Positions 13,062-26,599 of a DNA stretch of 30,984 nt are shown piece after piece. A model generated the notes under the pieces. The model was not told the origin of the DNA and ran no database searches. It saw only the letters and a program-made list of their open reading frames with translations. The position numbers were made by a program, and so were the translations under genes. Source of the DNA: a virus. Taxonomy: Duplodnaviria; Caudoviricetes. Positions within the stretch are counted from its first letter, which is position 1; each line of letters opens with the position of its first letter. The stretch is taken from positions 1 through 30,984 of the IMG/VR virus record IMGVR_UViG_3300031673_000322; one strand, given 5' to 3'.

Positions 13062-16000
13062 ATGAGCATCACATTTCTTGATGAAGCACCATCTCAAAAT
13101 AAAGGCATTACTTTTCTGGACGAGAGTTCAGGGGTAAATCCTAACCCCAGCGTTCCCCTCACTCAAAAAACTCGTGACGCCGCTGGCGGTGGCAAGCCAG
13201 AAGATGGTGGATTCTTAAGCGACCTTTCCTTGGCAGGCAAGGTGATCGGGACTGGAGTCTACTCCGCCTTTGCCGATATGTTTCCGAAGATCCTCGCCGA
13301 GGCAATCCGTGCTGGTGACATCGACACAGACACCGCCAACACCGCCCTCGACCGCTGGATTCAGGAACAGAAGAAAGACCTCGAGCGTTGGGATCTCACG
13401 GAAGCCGAGAAGAACGACAAGTTGTTCGGGATTATCAAGGCACAGGATGTATTGTCTGGATTACAGAATCTCGGCTATTCCGCTGCGATTGGGGTAGCTG
13501 GTATGGTAGGCGGTGCTGCGATTGGATCTTTGGCGGGGCCAGCAGGAACGGTCGCAGGAACAATAGGCGGAATAGCAGGGGGGGTAGCTGGTGCGGGAGC
13601 CATTACCTTCCCTGTGATGTATAGAGCCACCAAGGATCAGTTTTTGGCTGATATGCTCGACAAGGCACAAAGAGAAAAGCCAGATCTCACCGACGCCGAA
13701 TGGAACGAGATGAAGGTTGCTCTGGAGTCCGACGCCCAGATGTACGCCTTTTGGGAGGCAGCCCCTGAGACGGTCGGCAATATGATCACCGCTGGTATCA
13801 TCAAGACCCCAATCGGCTCGATCCTGAAGCGTATCCCTGATATTAAGAACATCATCTCACGCACCCTCGCAACGGCTGGCACTAAGATCGCACTCGATAT
13901 TCCTGAGGAGTTGGCGACAGAAACTCTTACCCAGTATCAGCAGGCTAAGATCGAGGCAAAGCCTGAGGTCGGCTTGCGTGACAAGGCACCCACGATTAAG
14001 GAAGCGTTCACGGAGATTGCTCCTCAGGTTCTTGTGACCACGATTGCGGGGCTGGGAATGGGATCAGTTGCATCCAGAGCGTCCGAGGTCAGGCAGGAGA
14101 TCAACTTCCACCAACGGCTTAGTAAACTGGGATATGAACCCAAAGTAATCAGGGATCTCTCCTCGAAGATCGGCTTTGACGAAAGTGCGTTACGACTTGC
14201 TGAGCAAAACGCTCCTGTAGTAGCTGAGGCAATCAACAACAATATGTTACCCTCGACCATAGGAGAAATGAAAGGATCCCTGCTCCCGAGTCTTGTGCTG
14301 ACGACCTACAACAATGCCAGCGATAACGGGGCAAATCCTACCGCTGGCAGGGCTGCGGTCGAGGAACTCGTTCGGTCGGATAATTACAAACGCTTCCAGA
14401 AGCTTTTGAGACAGGCACGGGTAGATCAATCAGCAAAGAAAAAAGGAGGCAAAGATGCCGAAGGTACTAGAGGACAAGCTGAAGAGAGAGGCAAAGAAAC
14501 GAGGGTACGGGAAGAAGAAGGCAGGAGCGTATATTTACGGTACAATGCGGAAAACAGGCTGGAAGCCACCGAAGGAACAACATCAGACTTGGAGAGAGAA
14601 ACACGAGAAGCGAAGGAAGCGGAAGAATTAGCGGTGTCCTCGTCCATTCCAACCACTAAAGTTAAAAAAGGGCAACAGCCCATTACGACTAAGGGAATTA
14701 GGGCGGGGACACTTCCGCAAGTTGAGCCAGCGATAATGCAGGCGATACAAAAGGACGAGGCGGTTAACAGGATTGGTCTTGCGAAACCACCGCCCGTGCG
14801 ACCAATTGGTGAAGCCAAGTTTGCAACCACGGCTGAAGAGGCGACTCCCGCCGTCACTTCGTTTATTGAGAATATAGCAGGTCAGGGGCGTACCTTGCCT
14901 GTAAGTGAGAAAAGACCTGATGCCGACGCCGTCATCCTTACCGGGGTCAGGGTAGACCTTGCTCCAGACGGCAACAGGGTGCGGATTATTGACATGAAGG
15001 CGTTTGAACCCGGGCAAGGGGATCTCGTCAACCTGATGAGGATGCTGAGAGAAACCGCACGGGATACCAATGTTGATCTGGTGGTTACTCCTGCTGGAGA
15101 TAGTGCCGCACAGAAGAGTGCGGTGACTACATGGTATGGAGAGAACGGTTTTATACCCGAACCGAACGGCGATATGATTTTCACGCCAACAACAACCGAA
15201 CCACAGGAAGCCCAGAAGCAGGCGTTTATGGCTAGGGCAAAAAAGAGGATCAGGCTAGTCGCCGAGGCACGACCCGCCGCAAGGTCGTATGCATTCAGTC
15301 GATTTACGAATTCGCCTATGTCCGAAAAGGAGATTGAGGATGAGTCGGATAAGGCACTCGCCAAGGCAGTCGCAACCTTTGATATCGACAAGCCCAACTT
15401 TACGAGCTGGATGAAGACAGTTGTATCCCAGAGTCTCCAGAACTACATAGACAAAGTAAACAATGCAGCCAAGAGAGAGCCTTCGACAGTAAGTTTCCAG
15501 ACGCCAGTTCGGGTCGGTGCAACAGCGGAGGGCGAGGCGGTCGAGGTAAGTAAGGATGTATCCGAGATAGTAATGGAGAAGGGCAACCCGAGGGACATCG
15601 TAATGTCAAACGAGTTCTGGGAGGACTGGAAGAGGTTGCTGGGGGTTTGGGGACTTGAGGGCTTGTCAGAGACCAGAAGAAAGGTTATGGTTCGTCATTT
15701 AGAGGGGATGAATCACGCCACCATCGCAAGGGAACTTGGCTTCGATCAGACCAAGGTCGAGAGGGAATACGCTGGTGCCACGAAGCAGTTCAAAGAATTT
15801 CTTGATAATCATGGCTTCGTGGAAGCCGAGGCTCAGCAGGTATTGGCGGAGGTAAGAACGAGAGATGTATTTTATGGAGGATTAAAAGATGACACAGCAA
15901 GACCAACAGAACAACCAACCAAGCAGCCGAGTAAACGACCTAGTGAACAACCTAGCGGACGAACAGTCCCCCGGGGAGGACAGCCCGTCCAACGAGTCGG

Positions 16001-19000
16001 AGAGCCATCCGTCGCTGGTGAAACTGAAGAGCAAAGACGGCAAAACCGTAGTGACATTCTCCGTACGGGTTGGAACGCCTTACGAAGACTCAGACGCAGA
16101 GCAAGTGCAAAAGGCAATACAGGCTGGGATGCTCCCGTTGTAGACCTTATCCGTGGGGCAGAGCCAGTCTTCAAAGACCTGAGCAACAGGGCGGTAGAGA
16201 TTACCGACATATTTGCCCAAGAAGGATATACCGCCGTCTTCATCCATAACCCGCTGGTTAGGATATCCGCCGTGACGATGGCGGACGAGAAGGTTGTCGT
16301 CTTTAACCAACGGACAATCGACAGCTCCCATGAATTATTCCATGTTAAGATCAATAAGGGTGACGCAGGGGCGATGGCGATCCTCAAGTTTGTCAGGGAC
16401 GAGTGGGGTGTAAGCAATGATATGTTCACAAAATATCGCCTCGGGATGGCAAAGTCCCTGAGGACTGATATCGCCAATATTTCCCGAGAGAGGGTCGAGG
16501 AGGATATCGCAGCTGATTACTACCAAGCCACGATAGATAATAGGCTGTTCTCCCGCAACAATGTCGAGTTCTTTGGGATGGTGACCATCGACAGGCTGGC
16601 TGGATACCCAGAGACAACCCTCCCTCCGTACATTACGGAAGGGGAGACAGGTGAAATAAAAAGTAGTCCTCCTGCACCCAACGCCTTCCAAGATGGTAAG
16701 GACGCACAGGAGATAACTCGCAAATACGGAGATGCCACAGGATCCATTGAAGACATTAAATATGCCGTCAATAATAAATATACCATGAAATCATTCCCAA
16801 TACCCGTCGGACAACTCGCCACGCTCGATGAGCTGGGCAAGCCACTTTCAAATGTATTTAGTGCTGAGGCACAGATATTGAATCAACTCTTCCCTAATTT
16901 ATTCAAGGGAGACCCATCTAAACTTAGCATTATAGATTCCATTAATGTTATCCGAAAGGCTAAAGCAAACGGAGACCTTGCTGATTTTATGACAGGGAAA
17001 CGCATTTCTGATAATAGCATTATATCTTGGAGTGGTACTCAGGCGTCCAACACTATAAGAAAAGTAGAAGCCTCTTCGTTCAGAAGGATGAAACCAAACG
17101 AGCTTACTGGCACGGGCGGATTTTGGACAAAGAACATTAAGACTGGACTCTCCCTTGACTTTGCCTTGTCGTCCTGTGTTCCTACCGCCGCCTGTCCACG
17201 ATGCTACGCGGCGTCTGTCATTCAGTCCCACACATTTCAACAAGTCAATTATTTCAGAAACCTTCTCTGGGCGATCCACGATCCCAACGCTTTTGCTGAT
17301 GCTTCTTTGAAGGAATTAAAGGGTATACATTCGTCGATGACAAAAGAATCGTTAGCTTCCCTCGGAGGAATGCATATTAGGTTCAATGCATTCGGGGATA
17401 TAGGATTCAAAGAACAAGTGCAAGCCATGAACCGCATCATAGAAGGTATGCCACAGGATACAATCGCAGTTATCTTTAGTAGAAATCATACGGCACGATG
17501 GAAAGGGCAGGGTGCTTTGGATCAAATCGTTGTTCCAAAAGGAAAGAATGTAATCATAAATGCCTCGGTAGATCGCCAGCTCGTGCGTGAGTATGGCATT
17601 TCAGCACTCAAGAAACTTCCAAAGAATTGGAATATATCCTACCTTTATGTTGGCGAGGAAGATATTAATGTTTTGAGAAAACTTCTTAATGCCGATCTAT
17701 TCCCGATCATACACATCGACAAAGATGACTACAACAATGATAGCATACGGACATCTCTCAAAAAGGCTTATGTTGATACTGGGTATGAAGCAAATACTGA
17801 CACAGCCACCGTCTGCCCCTGCTCAGTAAGATTCCAGCCTCAGGCATCCTCGTGTGTGCAATGTCAAAAAGGTACGCACGGTTGCTTCCGTATGACAAGA
17901 GTGGCGGTCAATAATAAACTTGTGAGGGGTGCGGCGTTGGCGAGAGTAATGGTCTCGTTAAAGAAGACAAGAGACGAGTTGAAGGTCGATAAAAAAGGAA
18001 AACAAAAGACCAGCCCCATCAGGTTGTGGGATGGAGCCTTGGTAAAACCATTATCTATTATCGAAAGAAATCCCAAGAATATTGGTAGGGCAGAAAAATA
18101 TATAGAACACCTCGGAAGAACCGTCGAGCAACTACAGACCGAAAAACCACAGGCAGTTGCAAAAGCGACTGAGATCGTGAGCGGAAAGATTCAGCCGACG
18201 GTTAAGTTCGCCGTCGAGGAAAGTCAATTAGCCGACGGATCAATCATAATGGAACAGCCTAAGTTCGCTGTTACTTCTATGCCTATTGAGGAAGCGAAAA
18301 ACGACGAGTCTGTTTTCTGGCACGGTTCACCAAGCGGAGACCTTCGTGGATCAGCCAATGGTCTTCATATTGGAACATACACCGCAGCAAAGCAGGCTCT
18401 TGAAGCACGGATCGGGGTACCCGCAGTCGGCGAATGGGACGGAACAAGAGAATACGGAAAGACTCTCATCGCAGGGAATAAGACATTGAAAAAAATTGAT
18501 CCAAGAGGATACAACCAAACTGGATTTAATATTGAAGCACCAGAGGAAGATTATTATCCTACTGGAAAGGCAGAGTACAGCGACAGGACGCCCGTAGCGA
18601 TGACGGCAACGCCAAGCCTTAGGGCGTTTAGGATCACGGGCAAAATGAGCAATACTCCTCAGAACGCCTTGGAAGATTTTAAGGCAAACGCTGTGATGCG
18701 TGGGCAAATAACACGGGGAATGGCAAGGCGGGGATATTTTTACGAAAATGTTGGAGAGGATGAGGGATCTATTTCCGCAGTAATTCCCGCCTCTTCTCAT
18801 ATCGAAGAGATATCACTTACCGAAGAACCCAAGACCGCCGTCACCTCCACCGAGGATCAGGTGTATTACCACGGAACGCAAAGTGAGTTTGCCGAATTCA
18901 GCGATAAGATAACGAATATCAATGCCTATGGCAAGGGGTTCTACTTTACCACGGACAGACAGAGTGCCGAACGATATGCAAAGGCAGAAGAGGGTGGTCG

Positions 19001-22000
19001 CATACGGACAATCAGAGGAGAGCGTCCCAGAGTAATTTCTGCCCGTTTAGAAATCAAAAAGCCGTTCGTTATGGGGCAGGGACTCGTATCGAACGAAGAT
19101 CTCGCCACGATCAATTCCATTGCTGGCTGGGAACTCGGCCCATTTGACGAATCATATAAACCCACAGCAAATGCCGTCTGGTCGGAACTGGTTATAAACT
19201 CCACGGGAGACAAGGCGACTACAGCAAATCAGATTCTCCAGAAAGCAGGATTTGATGCCATTGTCGCCCCAAAAGAAACCATCGTATTCAAACGAGAGCG
19301 GATATTGGGTCAGCAAAGCGAAGATGTAAAATTCGCTACCCGTGCCGTCACCCCCGCCGAGGATCAGGCGTATATGGATGCGGTCGAGAAGGGTGACACA
19401 GCGACTGCCCAGAGGATGGTGGACGAGGCTGCGAAGAAGGCATGGTATGACTCCGAACCAGTTTATCACGGTAGTCCTCATGCTGGTTTCACTAAATTTG
19501 ATATCCCATCTAAAGGGTACAATAGTAATGTGCTTGGATCTTGGGATGTTGAGCGTAATGTAGCCTTTTTTACTCCAGATAAAAACGCAGCGGCTGGATA
19601 TCAAACCCAAGGAGGAAGAACTTCTGGAGAAACTAGAAAGTTTTATTTGGATGGTGAGTTCGCCGATCTTCGCAAAGGTATTAGCGAAGCAAGGTTGAAC
19701 ACGCTTGTTGATAACGGAGTTAACGAAAGGTTTTTATCTCAAAAAGGAGCAAGCTGGGAACTATTTGATAAAGAACAAGACCCAGATGGAACTATAGTTA
19801 AAGCATTTAAAAAGATGGGGTACGACGGGGTAATTATTCACGATACAGACGGAATAAATGATTTTGATTCTTATGCCGTCTTCTCCCCCTCCCGCATCAA
19901 GTCTGCCGACCCCGTCACCCGTGACGACGCTGGCAATGTAATCCCGCTGTCCAAAAGATTTGATCCGAAGAAAGAGGACATCAGGTACGCCGTTGAGGAC
20001 GATGCCATGGTGGACGAGATGGTTCCGCCTGAGGACATAGAATATACCACGGAAGAAGCCGAAGCTGAAGCCGAAGAGGAAGCCGCCCCCGTTTCCGAGC
20101 AAAAACCATCCCGCACGGCGTTGAACATCTCCCGGGACACGCAGGGGATACGGTCTGAAGATTTGAGGGCTGAATTTGTTGACATCTTCTACGAGGTCAA
20201 GCCTAATGTGGTGCTGATTGACGAGGTTATGTCGATACTTAGCACCGAGGGTATAAACAACGCCCGTGAATTGTACTTTAACAGAGGTTCGAGGATCACC
20301 GCCGACCAGAGGGTTCTCCTCGGCTTTATCCTGATGAAGACTCACGACGACGAGGCACAGGCGGTTAGGTCTACCAATCCAGAACTCTCCGACAAGCACT
20401 ACGACATGGCGGTGGATATAGGGCTGGAATTAGACGAGATTAACCGTGAGTACGGTCGTGCGGTTCAGGCGAATGCAATTATGTGGCGGAGCGTCCTTGC
20501 GACGCCAGCAGGGGCCGAGAGGTTCATGAGGAAGATTGTCAACCGCTACGCCGACTCGGTAATGCAACGGCAAGATGTCAAGGACTTGGTGTTGGGATAC
20601 CGTCGAATTACCGAAGGGGCCGCTGGCGAGGTGGTTAACGAGCCGTATATCCAACAGAGAATTGCCAATGTCCTCGAGATGATCTCCTCGGAGCGTGAAA
20701 AAGAGCTGACAGGATATCTCGCAAACGATGAAAAAATGAAGGTGGCACAGGAGACCCTCTCCTCGGAGGAGACTGAGATCCCTGCTGGAATATCACTTGC
20801 CACAGAGCAGTCAGAGGAGCTTACCCTTGACGAGAAGCTCGGGATGTTTGCCAGATACGGTATGGGCTTGATCATCAAGGGAAGGATCAGGACGCTCAAT
20901 GAGTTCTCAAAGGCAATGACCGAGAATATCCCAGATCCCAATTTGCCACAATATATGGGAAGAATCTACAACGACGCAAAGATCAGGGCGATGGATCGCA
21001 TAGCCCGTGGTGCAAGAAAGGCGACGAAGGCGGAAACTAAGAGAGAGAAAGCGGGCGGAAGGGATGTCGCCAGGCAGGTTAACGCCGTCCTGAGGGAATG
21101 GGCTACTGGCAGCCTGACCGCCGAGCCTCGAACAATCATCGACAGGCTTGCCCAGCTTGGCGTCTCCGAAGCCAGAGCGACAAAGCTAATGGACGCTACC
21201 CGTACACGCTTTGCTGAGAGGACTGTGAAACGCAGGGCGGATTTCCTCAAGAAGTTTACGACAGGCAGGAAGATCGATCCTGAGACACAGAAAGCATACA
21301 AGAATATTACAGAGCTGGCTAGCCGTGATGATCTAACGGACGAAAATGTCCGTGACGCCATCGTCACAGCATTTGATTTGCCCGACCCAAAGAGCGAGAG
21401 GATCAGAACCCGGGTAGCCAAACTAGCAAAGGCCATCAAAGACGCTCCCGAGGGATTTAAAAAAGACGATGAAGTCCGCAAGATGCTTGACTTTATCAGG
21501 ACGGAGATGCCCATAGCAAAAATGGATGTGGTGTGGTCGCTCTGGTATGCCAACATCCTCTCTGGATACCAGACCGCCGAGCGTAATATGGCTGGTAATT
21601 TATTCAACTTAATAAGCACACTCACGGCATCGATAATTGTCGAGCCACGGAACGCCCCTGTCGCCCTCTGGGGGTTCGTGAAGGGTGTAGGCTCCGGGAT
21701 GAGAGCTGCGTACAATGTAATGAAGACAGGGAGCTTCCCTATCCGTGACGAAAAGTACGAGCAGTCGCAGGTTCTTGAGTTCTTTCCGTTCCGTGGGATG
21801 ATGAAGGTGCTATCCAACTGGAAGTATGTGCTTCGCTCCCTGCAAGCAGTCGATATGCTGTTCTACAAGGCTGGGCAGGAAGCTCGTGCAATGATGCTAG
21901 CGGCGGACATCGCCCGAACGGAGAGCGAGACACCAGCGGATAAAGTATGGGAAAGGGCGGCTGAATTAACTGGGCTATCAAAAGATGTTCAGGCAAAGTA

Positions 22001-23303
22001 CAGGGCAATTGCGATAGCAGAAAAGTTTAGAGGCAACGAAATCGAACTGAGGGTTCAGGAACTTGCAGAGAGGAATCGCCCCGAGGAGATTACTACCGAG
22101 GCAACCGACTACGCCAGACGGGTGACATACAACTATCAGCCCGAGGGGCAACTTGGGATCCTCGCCAAAGGGATATCAGAAGTTTCCAAGTCTGTGCCGA
22201 TGCTGAGACTGGCGGTACCTTTCACGAGGATCGTTGCAAATGTCGGCAACACGACGATTGACTATACTCCTTGGGGCTTCGTACGGGCGATCCGTGGGAT
22301 GCGTGATCTAAAAGGCAAGCTGACTCCAATGACAGGTCATCGCCGTGCGACTACGATGGCAAAGGCTATGATGGGAACCATAGGAATGGTGTCCGCTTAT
22401 ATGGCAGACAAGATGCAGGGAGATGATGACGATGAGGACAAAAAGACCTTTGCGATATATGGCTCTGGGCCAAGTGAACTGAACAAGGCGTATCAACTGC
22501 GACAAACTGGATGGCGTCCTTACAGCTTCAAGTTTGGGAAACGGTATTTCGACTACCGCCTGACCCCGCTGGCGATCCCGTTTGCCATCATCGGGTCGAT
22601 CCGTGACGCCGAACGCTGGCACAAGCTGGATGAGAAGAGCAAATGGCAAAGAGCTTCGTATGCCACCCTGAAGTCTGGATCGGTCATATTTGATATGTCC
22701 TTCCTGTCTGGAATCAATCAGGTTATGACTATGTTGCAGTCAGGCACCTCGGAATCGAGCGGAAGGAAGTTGCAGAATTATCTGATCCGCAATGCGAGTT
22801 CGGCGGTACCAGCGTTGTTCAAGCAGATCGACAGGACATTCGATTCCCAGATCCACGACAACGCAACGATACAGGAAGCGTTGCTTCGGGAGTTGCCTGT
22901 TGCGTCCCGCCTTGTCAGACCGAAACTGAACCTGCTCGGCGAACCAGTCCCGCAACTGACTGGGCCACTCTCCATCTTTATCAGCGATAAGCAATCCGAT
23001 CCTGTATGGAGATTCATCGCCAACAAGGAAGTCTTTATCAGCAAGCCTCCGAAATCCACGACGGTCGGCAGGGGCAGAAGGAAGCGTATGATGACCGAAG
23101 AGGAGTACTACACTTACATACAGACATCAGGAAAGATGATCCGTAATATGCTGGAGAGAACCCACACCAAATTAGAGAAGATCAAGGATCGTGACAGGAT
23201 CGAGAAGATCGTGGACAAAGCCGTAATAAAAATACGATCCAAGGTGAAGCGAAAGATCTACATCGACAGCGTAAGAGCGAGGAGGAGATCAAGTGCCATC
23301 TGA
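13062..23303 (+). CDS. Giant polyvalent virion/ejection protein (3413 aa): Gly-rich TM, GNAT, sigma-70 r2+r4, HExxH peptidase, GP88/radical-SAM-like, 3 ADP-ribosyltransferase-like modules, LPD38-like C-terminus
   Basis: Motifs EPGQG..WYGENGF; FTSWMKTVV..IARELG; HELFH..EEDIAAD; CVPTAACPRCYA..IRFNAFGD; WHGSP, YHGT..GFYFT, YHGS..GYDGVI; PFTRIVAN. Confidence 0.85.
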   Translation: MSITFLDEAPSQNKGITFLDESSGVNPNPSVPLTQKTRDAAGGGKPEDGGFLSDLSLAGKVIGTGVYSAFADMFPKILAEAIRAGDIDTDTANTALDRWIQEQKKDLERWDLTEAEKNDKLFGIIKAQDVLSGLQNLGYSAAIGVAGMVGGAAIGSLAGPAGTVAGTIGGIAGGVAGAGAITFPVMYRATKDQFLADMLDKAQREKPDLTDAEWNEMKVALESDAQMYAFWEAAPETVGNMITAGIIKTPIGSILKRIPDIKNIISRTLATAGTKIALDIPEELATETLTQYQQAKIEAKPEVGLRDKAPTIKEAFTEIAPQVLVTTIAGLGMGSVASRASEVRQEINFHQRLSKLGYEPKVIRDLSSKIGFDESALRLAEQNAPVVAEAINNNMLPSTIGEMKGSLLPSLVLTTYNNASDNGANPTAGRAAVEELVRSDNYKRFQKLLRQARVDQSAKKKGGKDAEGTRGQAEERGKETRVREEEGRSVYLRYNAENRLEATEGTTSDLERETREAKEAEELAVSSSIPTTKVKKGQQPITTKGIRAGTLPQVEPAIMQAIQKDEAVNRIGLAKPPPVRPIGEAKFATTAEEATPAVTSFIENIAGQGRTLPVSEKRPDADAVILTGVRVDLAPDGNRVRIIDMKAFEPGQGDLVNLMRMLRETARDTNVDLVVTPAGDSAAQKSAVTTWYGENGFIPEPNGDMIFTPTTTEPQEAQKQAFMARAKKRIRLVAEARPAARSYAFSRFTNSPMSEKEIEDESDKALAKAVATFDIDKPNFTSWMKTVVSQSLQNYIDKVNNAAKREPSTVSFQTPVRVGATAEGEAVEVSKDVSEIVMEKGNPRDIVMSNEFWEDWKRLLGVWGLEGLSETRRKVMVRHLEGMNHATIARELGFDQTKVEREYAGATKQFKEFLDNHGFVEAEAQQVLAEVRTRDVFYGGLKDDTARPTEQPTKQPSKRPSEQPSGRTVPRGGQPVQRVGEPSVAGETEEQRRQNRSDILRTGWNALRRLRRRASAKGNTGWDAPVVDLIRGAEPVFKDLSNRAVEITDIFAQEGYTAVFIHNPLVRISAVTMADEKVVVFNQRTIDSSHELFHVKINKGDAGAMAILKFVRDEWGVSNDMFTKYRLGMAKSLRTDIANISRERVEEDIAADYYQATIDNRLFSRNNVEFFGMVTIDRLAGYPETTLPPYITEGETGEIKSSPPAPNAFQDGKDAQEITRKYGDATGSIEDIKYAVNNKYTMKSFPIPVGQLATLDELGKPLSNVFSAEAQILNQLFPNLFKGDPSKLSIIDSINVIRKAKANGDLADFMTGKRISDNSIISWSGTQASNTIRKVEASSFRRMKPNELTGTGGFWTKNIKTGLSLDFALSSCVPTAACPRCYAASVIQSHTFQQVNYFRNLLWAIHDPNAFADASLKELKGIHSSMTKESLASLGGMHIRFNAFGDIGFKEQVQAMNRIIEGMPQDTIAVIFSRNHTARWKGQGALDQIVVPKGKNVIINASVDRQLVREYGISALKKLPKNWNISYLYVGEEDINVLRKLLNADLFPIIHIDKDDYNNDSIRTSLKKAYVDTGYEANTDTATVCPCSVRFQPQASSCVQCQKGTHGCFRMTRVAVNNKLVRGAALARVMVSLKKTRDELKVDKKGKQKTSPIRLWDGALVKPLSIIERNPKNIGRAEKYIEHLGRTVEQLQTEKPQAVAKATEIVSGKIQPTVKFAVEESQLADGSIIMEQPKFAVTSMPIEEAKNDESVFWHGSPSGDLRGSANGLHIGTYTAAKQALEARIGVPAVGEWDGTREYGKTLIAGNKTLKKIDPRGYNQTGFNIEAPEEDYYPTGKAEYSDRTPVAMTATPSLRAFRITGKMSNTPQNALEDFKANAVMRGQITRGMARRGYFYENVGEDEGSISAVIPASSHIEEISLTEEPKTAVTSTEDQVYYHGTQSEFAEFSDKITNINAYGKGFYFTTDRQSAERYAKAEEGGRIRTIRGERPRVISARLEIKKPFVMGQGLVSNEDLATINSIAGWELGPFDESYKPTANAVWSELVINSTGDKATTANQILQKAGFDAIVAPKETIVFKRERILGQQSEDVKFATRAVTPAEDQAYMDAVEKGDTATAQRMVDEAAKKAWYDSEPVYHGSPHAGFTKFDIPSKGYNSNVLGSWDVERNVAFFTPDKNAAAGYQTQGGRTSGETRKFYLDGEFADLRKGISEARLNTLVDNGVNERFLSQKGASWELFDKEQDPDGTIVKAFKKMGYDGVIIHDTDGINDFDSYAVFSPSRIKSADPVTRDDAGNVIPLSKRFDPKKEDIRYAVEDDAMVDEMVPPEDIEYTTEEAEAEAEEEAAPVSEQKPSRTALNISRDTQGIRSEDLRAEFVDIFYEVKPNVVLIDEVMSILSTEGINNARELYFNRGSRITADQRVLLGFILMKTHDDEAQAVRSTNPELSDKHYDMAVDIGLELDEINREYGRAVQANAIMWRSVLATPAGAERFMRKIVNRYADSVMQRQDVKDLVLGYRRITEGAAGEVVNEPYIQQRIANVLEMISSEREKELTGYLANDEKMKVAQETLSSEETEIPAGISLATEQSEELTLDEKLGMFARYGMGLIIKGRIRTLNEFSKAMTENIPDPNLPQYMGRIYNDAKIRAMDRIARGARKATKAETKREKAGGRDVARQVNAVLREWATGSLTAEPRTIIDRLAQLGVSEARATKLMDATRTRFAERTVKRRADFLKKFTTGRKIDPETQKAYKNITELASRDDLTDENVRDAIVTAFDLPDPKSERIRTRVAKLAKAIKDAPEGFKKDDEVRKMLDFIRTEMPIAKMDVVWSLWYANILSGYQTAERNMAGNLFNLISTLTASIIVEPRNAPVALWGFVKGVGSGMRAAYNVMKTGSFPIRDEKYEQSQVLEFFPFRGMMKVLSNWKYVLRSLQAVDMLFYKAGQEARAMMLAADIARTESETPADKVWERAAELTGLSKDVQAKYRAIAIAEKFRGNEIELRVQELAERNRPEEITTEATDYARRVTYNYQPEGQLGILAKGISEVSKSVPMLRLAVPFTRIVANVGNTTIDYTPWGFVRAIRGMRDLKGKLTPMTGHRRATTMAKAMMGTIGMVSAYMADKMQGDDDDEDKKTFAIYGSGPSELNKAYQLRQTGWRPYSFKFGKRYFDYRLTPLAIPFAIIGSIRDAERWHKLDEKSKWQRASYATLKSGSVIFDMSFLSGINQVMTMLQSGTSESSGRKLQNYLIRNASSAVPALFKQIDRTFDSQIHDNATIQEALLRELPVASRLVRPKLNLLGEPVPQLTGPLSIFISDKQSDPVWRFIANKEVFISKPPKSTTVGRGRRKRMMTEEEYYTYIQTSGKMIRNMLERTHTKLEKIKDRDRIEKIVDKAVIKIRSKVKRKIYIDSVRARRRSSAI
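14455..14631 (+). CDS. Nested +1-frame 58-aa basic protein inside the giant gene
   Basis: AGGAGG RBS 5 nt before ATG; MPKVLEDKLKREAKKRGYGKKKAGAYIYGTMRKTGWKPPKEQHQTWREKHEKRRKRKN. Confidence 0.65.
   Translation: MPKVLEDKLKREAKKRGYGKKKAGAYIYGTMRKTGWKPPKEQHQTWREKHEKRRKRKN
15889..16143 (+). CDS. Nested +1-frame 84-aa acidic protein inside the giant gene
   Basis: GGAGG at 15876-15880, 8 nt before ATG; overlaps a low-complexity linker of the giant protein. Confidence 0.5.
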   Translation: MTQQDQQNNQPSSRVNDLVNNLADEQSPGEDSPSNESESHPSLVKLKSKDGKTVVTFSVRVGTPYEDSDAEQVQKAIQAGMLPL

Positions 23304-23567: not shown

Positions 23568-23726
23568 ATGGTAAAAAAAGTAACCAACAGGACGGAGAGA
23601 ATAGTAAGGGATAAACTTATTTACGCAAGCAATCTGACGGGGCTATCAACAAGAGCGTTGCGTCGCCTGCTCGTGTTACGGTTTCTTACCCAGCTCGTCG
23701 GCGAATTAAACGGGAGGGCGAGGTGA
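23568..23726 (+). CDS. 52-aa basic, possibly DNA-binding protein (not in ORF track)
   Basis: AAGGAG RBS; MVKKVTNRTERIVRDKLIYASNLTGLSTRALRRLLVLRF...; GTGA overlap with the next gene. Confidence 0.65.
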   Translation: MVKKVTNRTERIVRDKLIYASNLTGLSTRALRRLLVLRFLTQLVGELNGRAR

Positions 23727-24133
23727 TTACAGATGTTCTAGCCGTGGCGTTGACGATCATGGCGGAGGCAGGCGGAGAGCCGTATGCAGGAAAGGTCATG
23801 GTCGGGGAGACGATTGCCTACAATCACATCATCAGCGGGAAGTCACTCGCAGAGGTCTGCCTCGCTAAGAAAAAATTCTCCTGCTGGAACTGGGGCTACA
23901 AAATCCTGCTTAAAAAACTTCATAAACAAAAAGCCTTTGATCAACCAGAGTGGAAGGACTGCATGAAGGTCGCCCGGGCAATACACGCACCTGCCTACAA
24001 GCCCATTAGCTCCGTCACTCACTTCTTGAACCCAAAGCTTGCACCTGATACCTTCAAACGATGGAAAAAGAAGATGCAGTTAGTTGCCGTGGTCGGTAAT
24101 CATGTCTTCTTTCGGGAGAAAGTTAATGAGTAA
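23723..24133 (+). CDS. Cell wall hydrolase, SleB/Hydrolase_2 family
   Basis: ALTIMAEAGGE, VCLAKKKFSCWN, THFLNP, VGNHVFF. Confidence 0.85.
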   Translation: MITDVLAVALTIMAEAGGEPYAGKVMVGETIAYNHIISGKSLAEVCLAKKKFSCWNWGYKILLKKLHKQKAFDQPEWKDCMKVARAIHAPAYKPISSVTHFLNPKLAPDTFKRWKKKMQLVAVVGNHVFFREKVNE

Positions 24134-24299
24134 AAAGGTTGTAGACCTAGAATTGCCAGAGCTATTTAAAAGAAATTATAATAGCAGAGTCGGCGGGCTG
24201 ATGCACGAGAAGTGTCCAGAAAATATTGACGAATGCAGCTCCGCCTTCGACGACGAACTTGACGAGATAACACAAAACATTTTCGAGCATCAGCCATGA
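24126..24299 (+). CDS. Small acidic hypothetical protein
   Basis: GGAG RBS before ATG 24126; ATGA overlap downstream. Confidence 0.5.
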   Translation: MSKKVVDLELPELFKRNYNSRVGGLMHEKCPENIDECSSAFDDELDEITQNIFEHQP

Positions 24300-24487
24300 A
24301 ATGGAAAAACAAAACAACCAAGGTCGCATTGTGTACGCAATGTGGGAAGGAGGTAGACGGGTCAGAACTGAAGAAAGGTAAGTGCGAGGTATGTACGAGA
24401 GAATCAATCAACGAAAGGAAAATTAATTATGACGCAAGAAATGCAAAAAAAGGGGACGGAATCCCTGACGATCAGGCAACTTATTGA
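24296..24487 (+). CDS. Small zinc-finger protein
   Basis: CTQC...CEVC. Confidence 0.5.
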   Translation: MKWKNKTTKVALCTQCGKEVDGSELKKGKCEVCTRESINERKINYDARNAKKGDGIPDDQATY

Positions 24488-25499
24488 GGGCGACGCCTTC
24501 AAGAACCAGATCATCAAGGCACTCCCCAGACACCTGTCGCCCGACAGGTTCATCCGTATCGCCCTTACGGCGATGACCAAGACGCCGAAGCTGGCGGACT
24601 GCACGAAGGCAAGCCTGTTCAACAGCCTGCTTAACCTGTCTCAGCTCGGGCTTGAACCCGACGGACGGAGATGTCACCTGATACCGTTTAATAACCAGAG
24701 ACAAGGTTGCATGGAATGCCAGCTCATCATCGACTACAAGGGTCTGGTGGAATTGGCGATGCGGACGGGCAAGGTATCCTTCATTCACGCCGATATCGTC
24801 TGTCAGGAGGATGAGTTTGCCTACGACAAGGGCGAGATCAAGACGCACAAAATCAACTTCCAGAAGCCCCGTGGCGAAATGTATGCGGTGTACGCAATCT
24901 GCCGCTTCAAAGATGGCACGGAGAAGGCGGAGGTGATGAGCAGGGAAGAGGTCGAGAAGATCCGCAAGCGGAGCAAGGCTGGCAATTCAGGGCCGTGGGT
25001 TACGGACTGGAACGAGATGGCGAAGAAGACTGCCTTTCGTCGCCTGTCCAAGTGGCTCGAGTTGTCGCCCGAGCAGAGGGATATTGTCGAAGTCGATGAT
25101 GACCGCCTTCCAGACGGGCAATGGGTTCCGCCGACAGCCAAGCAGCCGATCTTCAGGAAAGAGGTCGTAGTTGATCCGCCACCTGCCCCTGCCGAGGAGG
25201 AGGATAACCTTCCTATGGATGACAAGAAGGCACCTGTCAAGACACCCGCCAAGAAGAAGCCGCTCGAGGCCGATACCAATGGAGGCGATCCGTCCGACGA
25301 AACGCCTCAGGACACCTTGCTTCGGATGTTCATTCAGGACTTCGGTGGAACAGAGGGTCAGTTGTTGAGCGTCCTTCGTGCTGACAACATCCTGAAGTCA
25401 CACGAGACTCTGGAGCATCTCAGCAACGCCAAGGCATCAGCATTGATCAAGAATGTTAGTGCGATTCACGATAGAGCGGAGGAGATGGGTAGCAAATGA
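24429..25499 (+). CDS. recT: RecT-family single-strand annealing protein
   Basis: ALPRHLSPDRFIRIAL, LGLEPD, QLIIDYKGLVELA, PWVTDWNEMAKKT. Confidence 0.93.
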   Translation: MTQEMQKKGTESLTIRQLIEGDAFKNQIIKALPRHLSPDRFIRIALTAMTKTPKLADCTKASLFNSLLNLSQLGLEPDGRRCHLIPFNNQRQGCMECQLIIDYKGLVELAMRTGKVSFIHADIVCQEDEFAYDKGEIKTHKINFQKPRGEMYAVYAICRFKDGTEKAEVMSREEVEKIRKRSKAGNSGPWVTDWNEMAKKTAFRRLSKWLELSPEQRDIVEVDDDRLPDGQWVPPTAKQPIFRKEVVVDPPPAPAEEEDNLPMDDKKAPVKTPAKKKPLEADTNGGDPSDETPQDTLLRMFIQDFGGTEGQLLSVLRADNILKSHETLEHLSNAKASALIKNVSAIHDRAEEMGSK

Positions 25500-26599
25500 A
25501 GCCAGTCACGCTCCGAGCATCAACATTTGAAAGACGGTTATGTCCCGGCTCCGTGCAAGCGGAGTCGGGACTTCCCGACCTGCCCGACGAGGGTGGTGTC
25601 GCAGAAAGCGGGAAGAAAATCCACAACGCCCTGCGTATGTACTTCTCAAGAACAGTTGAGGATGTCAACGATATTGCAGTTGTTTGCGAACTGAACGAAC
25701 GGGAAACCATCGTGACCAAGTGGTTTGTAAGCAGGGCGGAGGTAATCCTAATTAAACACGGCGGTATGCTGAAATATTACCCAGAGCTTAAGTTGGATGA
25801 AACTGACGACGGAATATCAGGCACGGCAGACTTTGTCGCCCTGTGCAACGACGGTACATGGCAACTCTTTGACTGGAAGTCAGGCTGGGGACGACAGATC
25901 ACGGCGGAGCTAAACCTGCAACTGAGGGTGTACGCCTTAAAGGTAGCGGAGAAGTTTGGGTGCCTTGAGATCGACGCCCATCTATTTGCTGCTGGAAATG
26001 ATCCTGCGGATTCAGCTTTTTCGTCGTGCCACTACGGCCCAGACGAGATAACTGAGTCACGGAAGGAGATCTACGCAATCCGTGATGCGTGTTTCATGCC
26101 GAAGGCACCACGGTTGCCACTCCCTGATCGTTGTAAATACTGCAAGGCGAACGGAAACCCTGAGCGATGCAAGGAATCGTTTAAGACCCCGAAGGCATTT
26201 ACGGCTATCCAAAAGCGTATCACGCCTGCTATGTCGTTGAGGCTGAAAAAAATGTATGTTGCCTTCAAGCTGGCGGAGAAGGCACAGCAGGGATTCAAGC
26301 AATGGCTGAAAGAAGCGATGCGTAACCAGCCAGAGGCAATCCCGTGGGCTACATTCAGCAAGCCGAAGGAGCGGAGGGTAATCACCGACGCCGACAGGGC
26401 GTTCTCCATAGGTATCGCTGAGCAATGGTTTACTCAGGAGGAGTTTGTCAGGGAGTGCGTTAACATTAAGATTCCTTCAATCGAGAAGCTGGCGAAGCGT
26501 ATTAAAAAGCAGGACGAGGTAGAGGAGAAGCTGACAGAGGCTGGCGTACTGAAGTCCGAAGCAATGCAACCATCAATCGAACTCGTGAAAGAGGATTAA
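25496..26599 (+). CDS. PD-(D/E)XK exonuclease (Cas4/RecB-like), RecT partner
   Basis: CPGS, GTADF, DWKSG, QLRVYAL, CKYC..C cysteine staple. Confidence 0.85.
   Translation: MKPVTLRASTFERRLCPGSVQAESGLPDLPDEGGVAESGKKIHNALRMYFSRTVEDVNDIAVVCELNERETIVTKWFVSRAEVILIKHGGMLKYYPELKLDETDDGISGTADFVALCNDGTWQLFDWKSGWGRQITAELNLQLRVYALKVAEKFGCLEIDAHLFAAGNDPADSAFSSCHYGPDEITESRKEIYAIRDACFMPKAPRLPLPDRCKYCKANGNPERCKESFKTPKAFTAIQKRITPAMSLRLKKMYVAFKLAEKAQQGFKQWLKEAMRNQPEAIPWATFSKPKERRVITDADRAFSIGIAEQWFTQEEFVRECVNIKIPSIEKLAKRIKKQDEVEEKLTEAGVLKSEAMQPSIELVKED

Follow-up and report, generated by a model that had tools for sequence, protein, structure and literature searches.

The polyvalent proteins defined by Iyer et al. 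2017 (PMC5512222) are large chains that join several domains of unrelated activity. Autoproteolysis by their metallopeptidase (MPTase) domains is proposed in the same paper, and N4 vRNAP, ArdC and TraC1 are described there as travelling uncut, while the accessible part of its text mentions neither a site of cleavage nor a motif recurring at borders and has 0 matches for 'linker' and 'interdomain'. We analyzed a virus record of 30,984 nucleotides (IMG/VR IMGVR_UViG_3300031673_000322; Duplodnaviria, Caudoviricetes), here called the window over its whole length, with one giant open reading frame (ORF) whose product, judged by its sequence, appears to belong to this class. Like the proteins of Iyer et al., it is a giant virion-type chain joining ART-PolyVal (ADP-ribosyltransferase, ART), GNAT and MPTase domains. 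Unlike them, it has a C-terminal scaffold with no match to the LPD families of Pfam, and its zincin-type MPTase has only two true relatives among 1.84 billion representatives. Most modules of this protein are bordered by a short recurring peptide, of which related giant proteins carry versions of their own. Both the polyvalent class and its probable autoproteolysis have been described before; what is new is the protein-specific border motif, no description of which was found in the literature searched, most subscription papers being outside the reach of that search.

Other systems share parts of this arrangement. According to the accessible text of PMC13434306, coliphage N4 vRNAP (gp50, with gp51 and gp52) is likewise a protein of ~3500 amino acids with an HExxH domain and two smaller ejection proteins ahead of it, but it carries an RNA polymerase, and its recombinant form is reported intact. 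The crAss-like gp65-67 polyprotein (bioRxiv 2020.03.07.982082) also fuses virion proteins with a zincin and has been proposed to be cleaved into components; its cargo, however, is an RNA polymerase, and the accessible portion of the preprint gives no sites. In prohead-protease processing a short border motif guides the cutting of packaged proteins, e.g. in P1 gp23 at E120/S121 (PMC9024508, in the part accessible) and SPN3US gp245. Such systems also cut the capsid protein, whereas here a protease of this kind was not found and the motif keeps to the giant protein. The phi24B preprint, as far as its accessible text goes, assigns its metallopeptidase to peptidoglycan, and three further partly accessible papers (PMC9503650, PMC9509320 and PMC7824862) provide context only.

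Border motifs specific to each giant protein

The first-pass annotation of the window had listed seven peptides of the K/R-F/Y-A type in the giant protein. All seven lie in the frame of the ORF at 13062-23303, each with its K or R codon where it had been placed (Table 1). The pattern [KR][FY]A[TV] is present in six copies, as compared to 0.41 in shuffled sequences, and none of 2000 shuffles reached six; plain [KR][FY]A occurs nine times versus 2.95, with as many in 12 of 2000 shuffles. Among all 4-residue degenerate patterns, K-[FY]-A-[TV] ranks first in this protein (log10 p -5.76). A look-elsewhere test left the count alone without significance, since the top pattern was better still in at least 5 of 60 shuffles. 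Since [KR][FY]A[TV] was picked after the fact and fails this test, placement and relatives must decide.

The order of elements from the N-terminus is a shared region, motif 1, GNAT, sigma, zincin, motif 2, GP88, motifs 3 and 4, ART1, motif 5, ART2, motif 6, ART3, motif 7 and scaffold. The motif is found at six of the eight module borders. Those between GNAT and sigma and between sigma and zincin are without it, and three plain [KR][FY]A matches that the annotation had omitted lie off the borders, one inside ART2 (amino acid 1971) and two in the scaffold (2495 and 2716). It is in their placement that the motifs exceed chance: ends of homologue alignments accumulate at positions 1734 (58), 1924 (58), 2090 (86) and 2308 (107), and the motifs at 586 and 1233 belong to linkers modelled with low confidence, directly ahead of folded modules.

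We gathered a set of 207 giant proteins, for which the best 120 of 750 ART-region matches were taken. The ART3 tail was found in 76 of these, in 129 copies, and the proteins formed 57 clusters. Four of these had no anchored aromatic residue and were set aside, leaving 53 representatives. Most of the 129 tails are followed by D-I-R-[YF]-S (I in 111, R in 105, Y or F in 115). Over the 53 representatives, 63 further copies of the 4-residue version that follows the ART3 tail were found at other places of the protein concerned, versus 9.9±3.6 with swapped versions (0 of 5000 trials as high). The excess persists without the window protein (60 versus 9.9, 52 non-redundant proteins) and with ART-like tails masked (57 versus 9.3). 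At least one further copy of the exact version is present in 30 of the 52 proteins. Of the 63 own-version sites, 51 fall at homology-defined borders as compared to 16.4±3.5 for other F/Y positions, which bears out the expectation that homologues would show the motif at borders beyond chance. This is the unmasked result (48/63 with masking), used because masking could itself create alignment ends. The motif keeps to the cargo zone of the giant protein and avoids the termini: 3 of 53 sites are within 400 residues of the N-terminus or 800 of the C-terminus, with 16.8 expected.

The versions are diverse, e.g. RYSPG, FMARE, YMP, FKL/YKI, SFS, FQP and FLK, and shared modules bear the version of the protein in which they reside. 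The ART3 module of the window protein is 67-70% identical to modules of P0089, P0091 and P0092, yet the module ends follow the host protein, with RYAV in the window, RYSP in P0089 and RFQK in P0091. The GP88-like module of the window is 47% identical to one in P0101, where it is flanked by the FS[ES]-type sites of that protein. In P0015 an extra module sits between GVRMSV and GVRYAL, while P0008 has a single GLRYAL at the same place. A different repeat, ITTAS/VKTAS, separates several ART3 copies in P0088, a protein of 3776 amino acids with no HExxH.

In the window and five near-complete related genomes (G001-G005) there is almost no copy of the version outside the giant protein, most clearly in the window and in the genomes with RYSP. 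The window version has seven copies in the giant protein and none in 6174 other residues, and RYSP is found five times in each giant gene of G003, G004 and G005 and 0, 1 and 0 times in the 16-20 thousand other residues of these genomes. The looser patterns of G001 and G002 also match 5 and 14 places outside the giant protein.

At the codon level, agreement among the window copies was 33 out of 79 pairs with 30.0 expected from codon usage, in line with the earlier remark that conservation is at the protein level. Codon sharing was also near expectation in G001, G002 and G003, and in modest excess in G004 (14 versus 9.8). As sharing is mostly near expectation, selection acts mostly on the peptide. 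The copies in the giant gene of G005 (L037:928-15048) share codons at 35 of 62 pairs versus 17.9, hinting at recent duplication or conversion.

The embedded zincin and other candidate readers

The motif recurs at module borders, as would be seen in a self-processing polyprotein, and the protein's own zincin is the best candidate reader. In an AlphaFold2 (AF2) model with a mean pLDDT of 55, the domain is predicted to consist of a helix, three strands, the HExxH helix and a helix with the further Glu. HExxH would thereby lie on the helix after a three-stranded sheet with the Glu on a later helix, as expected of zincins. Structure searches gave weak matches, mostly to zincin folds (best Foldseek E 0.03-0.06, Z 4-5), namely PprI/IrrE, PPEP, ArdC and phage LPD proteins; an Atlas score of 0.83 is a lead only, and a sequence search of the PDB with the zincin gave no match. 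HExxH and the downstream E are present in P0209 and in both copies of P0210, and E1147 is kept in all four copies. No further window-type zincins were found in viral contigs, nor any new ones with P0209 as query, and P0208 was rejected as a relative, its match being a false one from a tandem repeat.

The closest relative of the window zincin is that of P0209 (32%), whose scaffold is only 25% identical. This protein has KFAI after its zincin, as EDVKFAI at the motif 2 position, and KMAR, LFAR and KMAV further on. Fourteen relatives (two clusters) with closer scaffolds (35-45% identical) carry a different, HExxxH zincin, and not K-F/Y-A but R-[ML]-S, a pattern chosen after viewing, with 44 matches versus 10.9. 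HExxH or HExxxH is present in 47 of the 57 clusters, and 98 of 109 sites are C-terminal of the first zincin. The ten clusters without HExxH comprise three with EExxH, two with EDxxE or EExxE, three apparently truncated at the N-terminus, one whose inspected portion showed no zincin, and one of another protein type.

Our judgement leans slightly towards the motif being recognized and cut by the zincin, by which cargo modules would be freed from one packaged precursor. The full-length chain would be packaged and then ejected together with two smaller ejection proteins, and the zincin (H1090, E1091, H1094, E1147) would then cut K/R-F/Y-A-V/T in the flexible linkers. The predicted pieces are ~63, 72 (GNAT, sigma and zincin), 53 (GP88), 2, 21, 18, 24 (with ART1-3 being the last three) and 125 kDa, so that GP88, the three ARTs and the GNAT-sigma-zincin piece would be released from the structural ends. 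A new module would be retained only if its borders suit the resident zincin. We infer each of these steps, from packaging and ejection to cutting, and also their timing; the cut may be made in the head or after entry.

Several observations weigh against cleavage by the zincin. Two borders lack the motif, as described above, and one site precedes the zincin. The link between the window zincin and its version rests on one relative, and P0210 has two window-type zincins yet no clear copy of the motif. A second copy of the exact version is missing from 22 of the 52 proteins, and the version is repeated at least twice in 8 of the 10 clusters without HExxH as compared to 23 of the 47 with it. Zincin-like domains with EDxxE and EExxE accompany seven copies of the motif in P0142 and five in P0144, respectively, and P0148/P0149, with RDxxQ, keep two sites (no genomic locus of P0149 was found). 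In a Mantel test, similarity in version was weakly correlated with similarity in zincin, and no better than with that in ART3 (partial r 0.19, 0.19 and 0.11 for zincin, ART3 and scaffold). A profile of the ART set over 19 zincin-bearing scaffold clusters showed no enrichment (32 versus 31.0), and flanks of ART1 were not associated with zincin presence (p 0.23, using a crude zincin caller with a 42% chance rate). Lastly, recombinant N4 vRNAP showed no degradation despite its HExxH domain, according to the accessible text cited above. A complex prediction with the zincin, Zn and the motif linker scored 0.02 and gave no usable model, and is not evidence.

Glu replaces one or both zincin His (EExxH, HExxE, EExxE, EDxxE) in several lineages, i.e. 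P0039, P0066, P0081, P0100, P0142, P0144, P0206, L039:7118-14029 and L040:8975-14023. These repeated changes suggest that metal binding may be kept, by which the objection from zincins without histidines is softened, not removed. The giant gene in L040 also has an in-frame TAG (L040:14024-14026) inside a module and off the motif, which may be a mutation, a sequence error or readthrough. In the closely related L004-L007 the scaffold is present, while HExxH and a repeated motif are absent; degenerate zincins are possible there.

We think it rather unlikely that the motif is a docking signal without cutting, whether with the zincin fold as a binding groove or with the packaging or ejection machinery ordering or unfolding the modules for a narrow channel. 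Docking keeps its standing since zincin-like domains that have lost their histidines are still accompanied by the motif, and it would fit N4 vRNAP, which is intact and has been likened to beads on a string, as well as doublets 9-25 residues apart in the window protein, P0101 and Y7. Most of the variants, however, exchange His for Glu (EExxH, HExxE, EExxE) with metal binding still possible, the acid at the second position is kept, and the intact zincin signature in the majority of clusters also weighs against docking. Cutting by another protease, whether one of the host, acting once the protein has entered, or a separate phage enzyme during head assembly, would likewise account for the motif beside dead-looking zincins, and appears unlikely to a slightly greater degree. 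A papain-like peptidase ORF does lie near the capsid gene of G005 (L035:2603-3457, PHROG 16701, E 2e-5), and the window is missing 44% of its genome, head genes included. The prohead protease that the annotation had offered as an option nevertheless found no support: the HK97-type head protease PF04586 is absent from the window and from 10 out of 10 related records, seven of which have a completeness of 90% or more. No head-protease family was identified among 80 ORFs selected in three complete relatives, whose head module is SU10-like, in a search with remote families and the absent part of the window outside its scope. The motif is also absent from the capsid and scaffold precursors, with none in the capsid or scaffold of G001 and the RYSP counts outside the giants as given above, and the many unlike versions would seem easier to reconcile with a phage reader that evolves fast than with host enzymes, which are conserved.

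The remaining explanations concern the origin of the pattern. A scar or crossover point of cassette insertion at the DNA level, also proposed by the annotation, could explain the two copies flanking the inserted module of P0015 and the shared codons of G005. Shared nucleotide sequence at junctions is nonetheless near expectation in five of the six genomes, and assemblies of three soil metagenome runs (two of which may be the source of the record) contain contigs spanning the DNA with zero joints, the phage's own contigs having zero indels, so that we regard a scar as very improbable. The same holds for the motif as nothing more than a conserved strand that ends the ART-PolyVal module: D-I-R-[YF]-S does follow most ART3 tails, but copies also stand next to GNAT, zincin, GP88 and scaffold modules, the own-version excess withstands masking of the ART-like tails, and the motif is lacking at the end of the stand-alone ART-like protein from phiGT1 (one case). 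That the pattern is a product of chance, chosen after the fact, is consistent with the failed look-elsewhere test for the window protein by itself; the homologue tests, independent of that count, largely refute it and make it hardly credible.

Modules, giant gene and neighborhood

The seven modules in the chain are GNAT, sigma, zincin, GP88 and three of ART type (Table 1). The GNAT-like module has no Pfam match, and a purpose-built GNAT profile also missed amino acids 596-708. Located beside this fold in a probably injected protein, the sigma-70-like module could possibly serve a virion-delivered start of early transcription. The GP88-like cargo module carries a CxxxxxCxxC cluster, and related modules are found in P0101 and P0209. 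In the window and in relatives, the helical head (D..YL.AV..GD...AQ.MVD) and the tail (ADPVT.DD.G.VIPLS.RF) of ART3 surround different ART cores elsewhere, including the ART1 type, and from these sequences head and tail are best described as a mobile wrapper around exchangeable cores. Phages in GenBank gave no match for ART1 or ART3, and prokaryote genomes none for ART3.

Table 1. Features of the giant protein and its gene in the window (positions in nucleotides of the window; aa, amino acids).
Feature	Position	Strand	Remarks
Two upstream ORFs, 377 and 511 aa	10281..13060	+	candidate other ejection proteins, by position
Giant polyvalent protein gene	13062..23303	+	ORF; 3413 aa, about 379 kDa; Pfam ART-PolyVal; after tail genes
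N-terminal region, common to closest relatives	13062..14321	+	hydrophobic stretches near aa 140 and 168; without motif
Motif 1, EAKFATT, K586	14811..14831	+	disordered stretch ahead of GNAT-like module
GNAT-like module, aa 596-708	14847..15185	+	AF2 single-sequence model; weak Foldseek matches to acetyltransferases including AcrVA5
Sigma-70-like module, aa 745-933	15294..15860	+	PHROG 1740 E 1.5e-7; Pfam Sigma70_r4_2 E 0.002; Foldseek E 3.4e-4
Zincin-like metallopeptidase domain, aa 1036-1173	16167..16580	+	HELFH at 16329-16343; putative third ligand E1147 at 16500-16502
Motif 2, DIKYAVN, K1233	16752..16772	+	end of disordered linker following zincin
GP88-like Cys-cluster module (CVPTAACPRC)	16779..18161	+	Pfam GP88 E 2.8e-4, below cut-off; Atlas 0.95
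Motif 3, TVKFAVE, K1715	18198..18218	+	upstream member of doublet
Motif 4, QPKFAVT, K1734	18255..18275	+	doublet with motif 3
ART-like module 1	18294..18815	+	61 homologues in other giant proteins; putative ART, no Pfam match of its own shown
Motif 5, EPKTAVT, K1924	18825..18845	+	no aromatic residue
ART-like module 2	18849..19316	+	Pfam DUF3990 E 4e-4; PHROG 4700
Motif 6, DVKFATR, K2090	19323..19343	+	before ART3
ART-PolyVal module 3 (ART3), helical head and conserved tail	19350..19976	+	Pfam PF18760 E 6e-23
Motif 7, DIRYAVE, R2308	19977..19997	+	ahead of C-terminal scaffold
C-terminal scaffold, ~1000 aa	20169..23300	+	common to 86 relatives
Eighth, degenerate site GISLAT, aa 2576-2581	20787..20804	+	in scaffold; not listed by the first-pass annotation; aligns with [RK]-F-[AS] in 11/11 aligned relatives, out of the 14 closest scaffold relatives

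The window is the whole of the virus record, with a completeness of 56%, and contains tail, lysis and recombination genes in addition to the giant ORF. The giant gene sits among virion genes: tail spike, tail fibre and holin genes are found upstream of it, and relatives carry portal and SU10-type capsid genes. By its position and by analogy with the N4 and SU10 gene order, the product is likely the third and largest ejection protein of a short-tailed phage. The two ORFs directly upstream have no family match and lack the motif. Genes for a cell wall hydrolase (PF07486), RecT and a PD-(D/E)XK exonuclease follow the giant gene (23723-26599). No RNA dataset was listed as containing the window DNA.

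Cultured phages and implications

Four cultured phages were examined, and in three of them a repeated peptide brackets an ART-like module in a protein that also has a zincin (two to three sites each, identified by eye): vB_PalP_Y7 (WPJ30526.1) with KFS/RYS/KFS near amino acids 3193, 3686 and 3695, F116 gp60 (AAT47251.1) with AFSR/LFSR, and gp39 of the Caulobacter phage Jess A (QCW21969.1) with LTQGE/LAQGE near 585 and 789. Scaffold and version differ from those of the window in all three. The fourth, phiGT1, has a stand-alone ART-like module and neither zincin nor repeated peptide. In F116 the giant cargo (L043:1026-12387) is annotated as the adjacent gp59 (2129 amino acids) and gp60 (1649 amino acids, two HExxH domains). 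With this pattern present in Y7, F116 and Jess A, the motif is testable in cultured phages.

More generally, and with more doubt than confidence on our part, the giant ejection proteins of many lineages may process themselves by a protein-specific code, in which each zincin would read its own site of 4-5 residues, incoming effector modules would be rewritten to match it, and the Glu-for-His variants would be readers that are active without zinc or bind only. If this is true, the code would predict mature effectors and the true boundaries of domains of unknown nature from sequence alone, and the zincins would constitute a family of orthogonal site-specific proteases. For the delivery of separate activities by polyvalent proteins of several thousand residues, a proposal put forward in 2017 is still open and specifies no sites. 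The protein-specific border motif offers a direct test of it, with named residues, predicted fragment sizes and cultured phages of harmless hosts, together with an account of module swapping and a rule for splitting domains.

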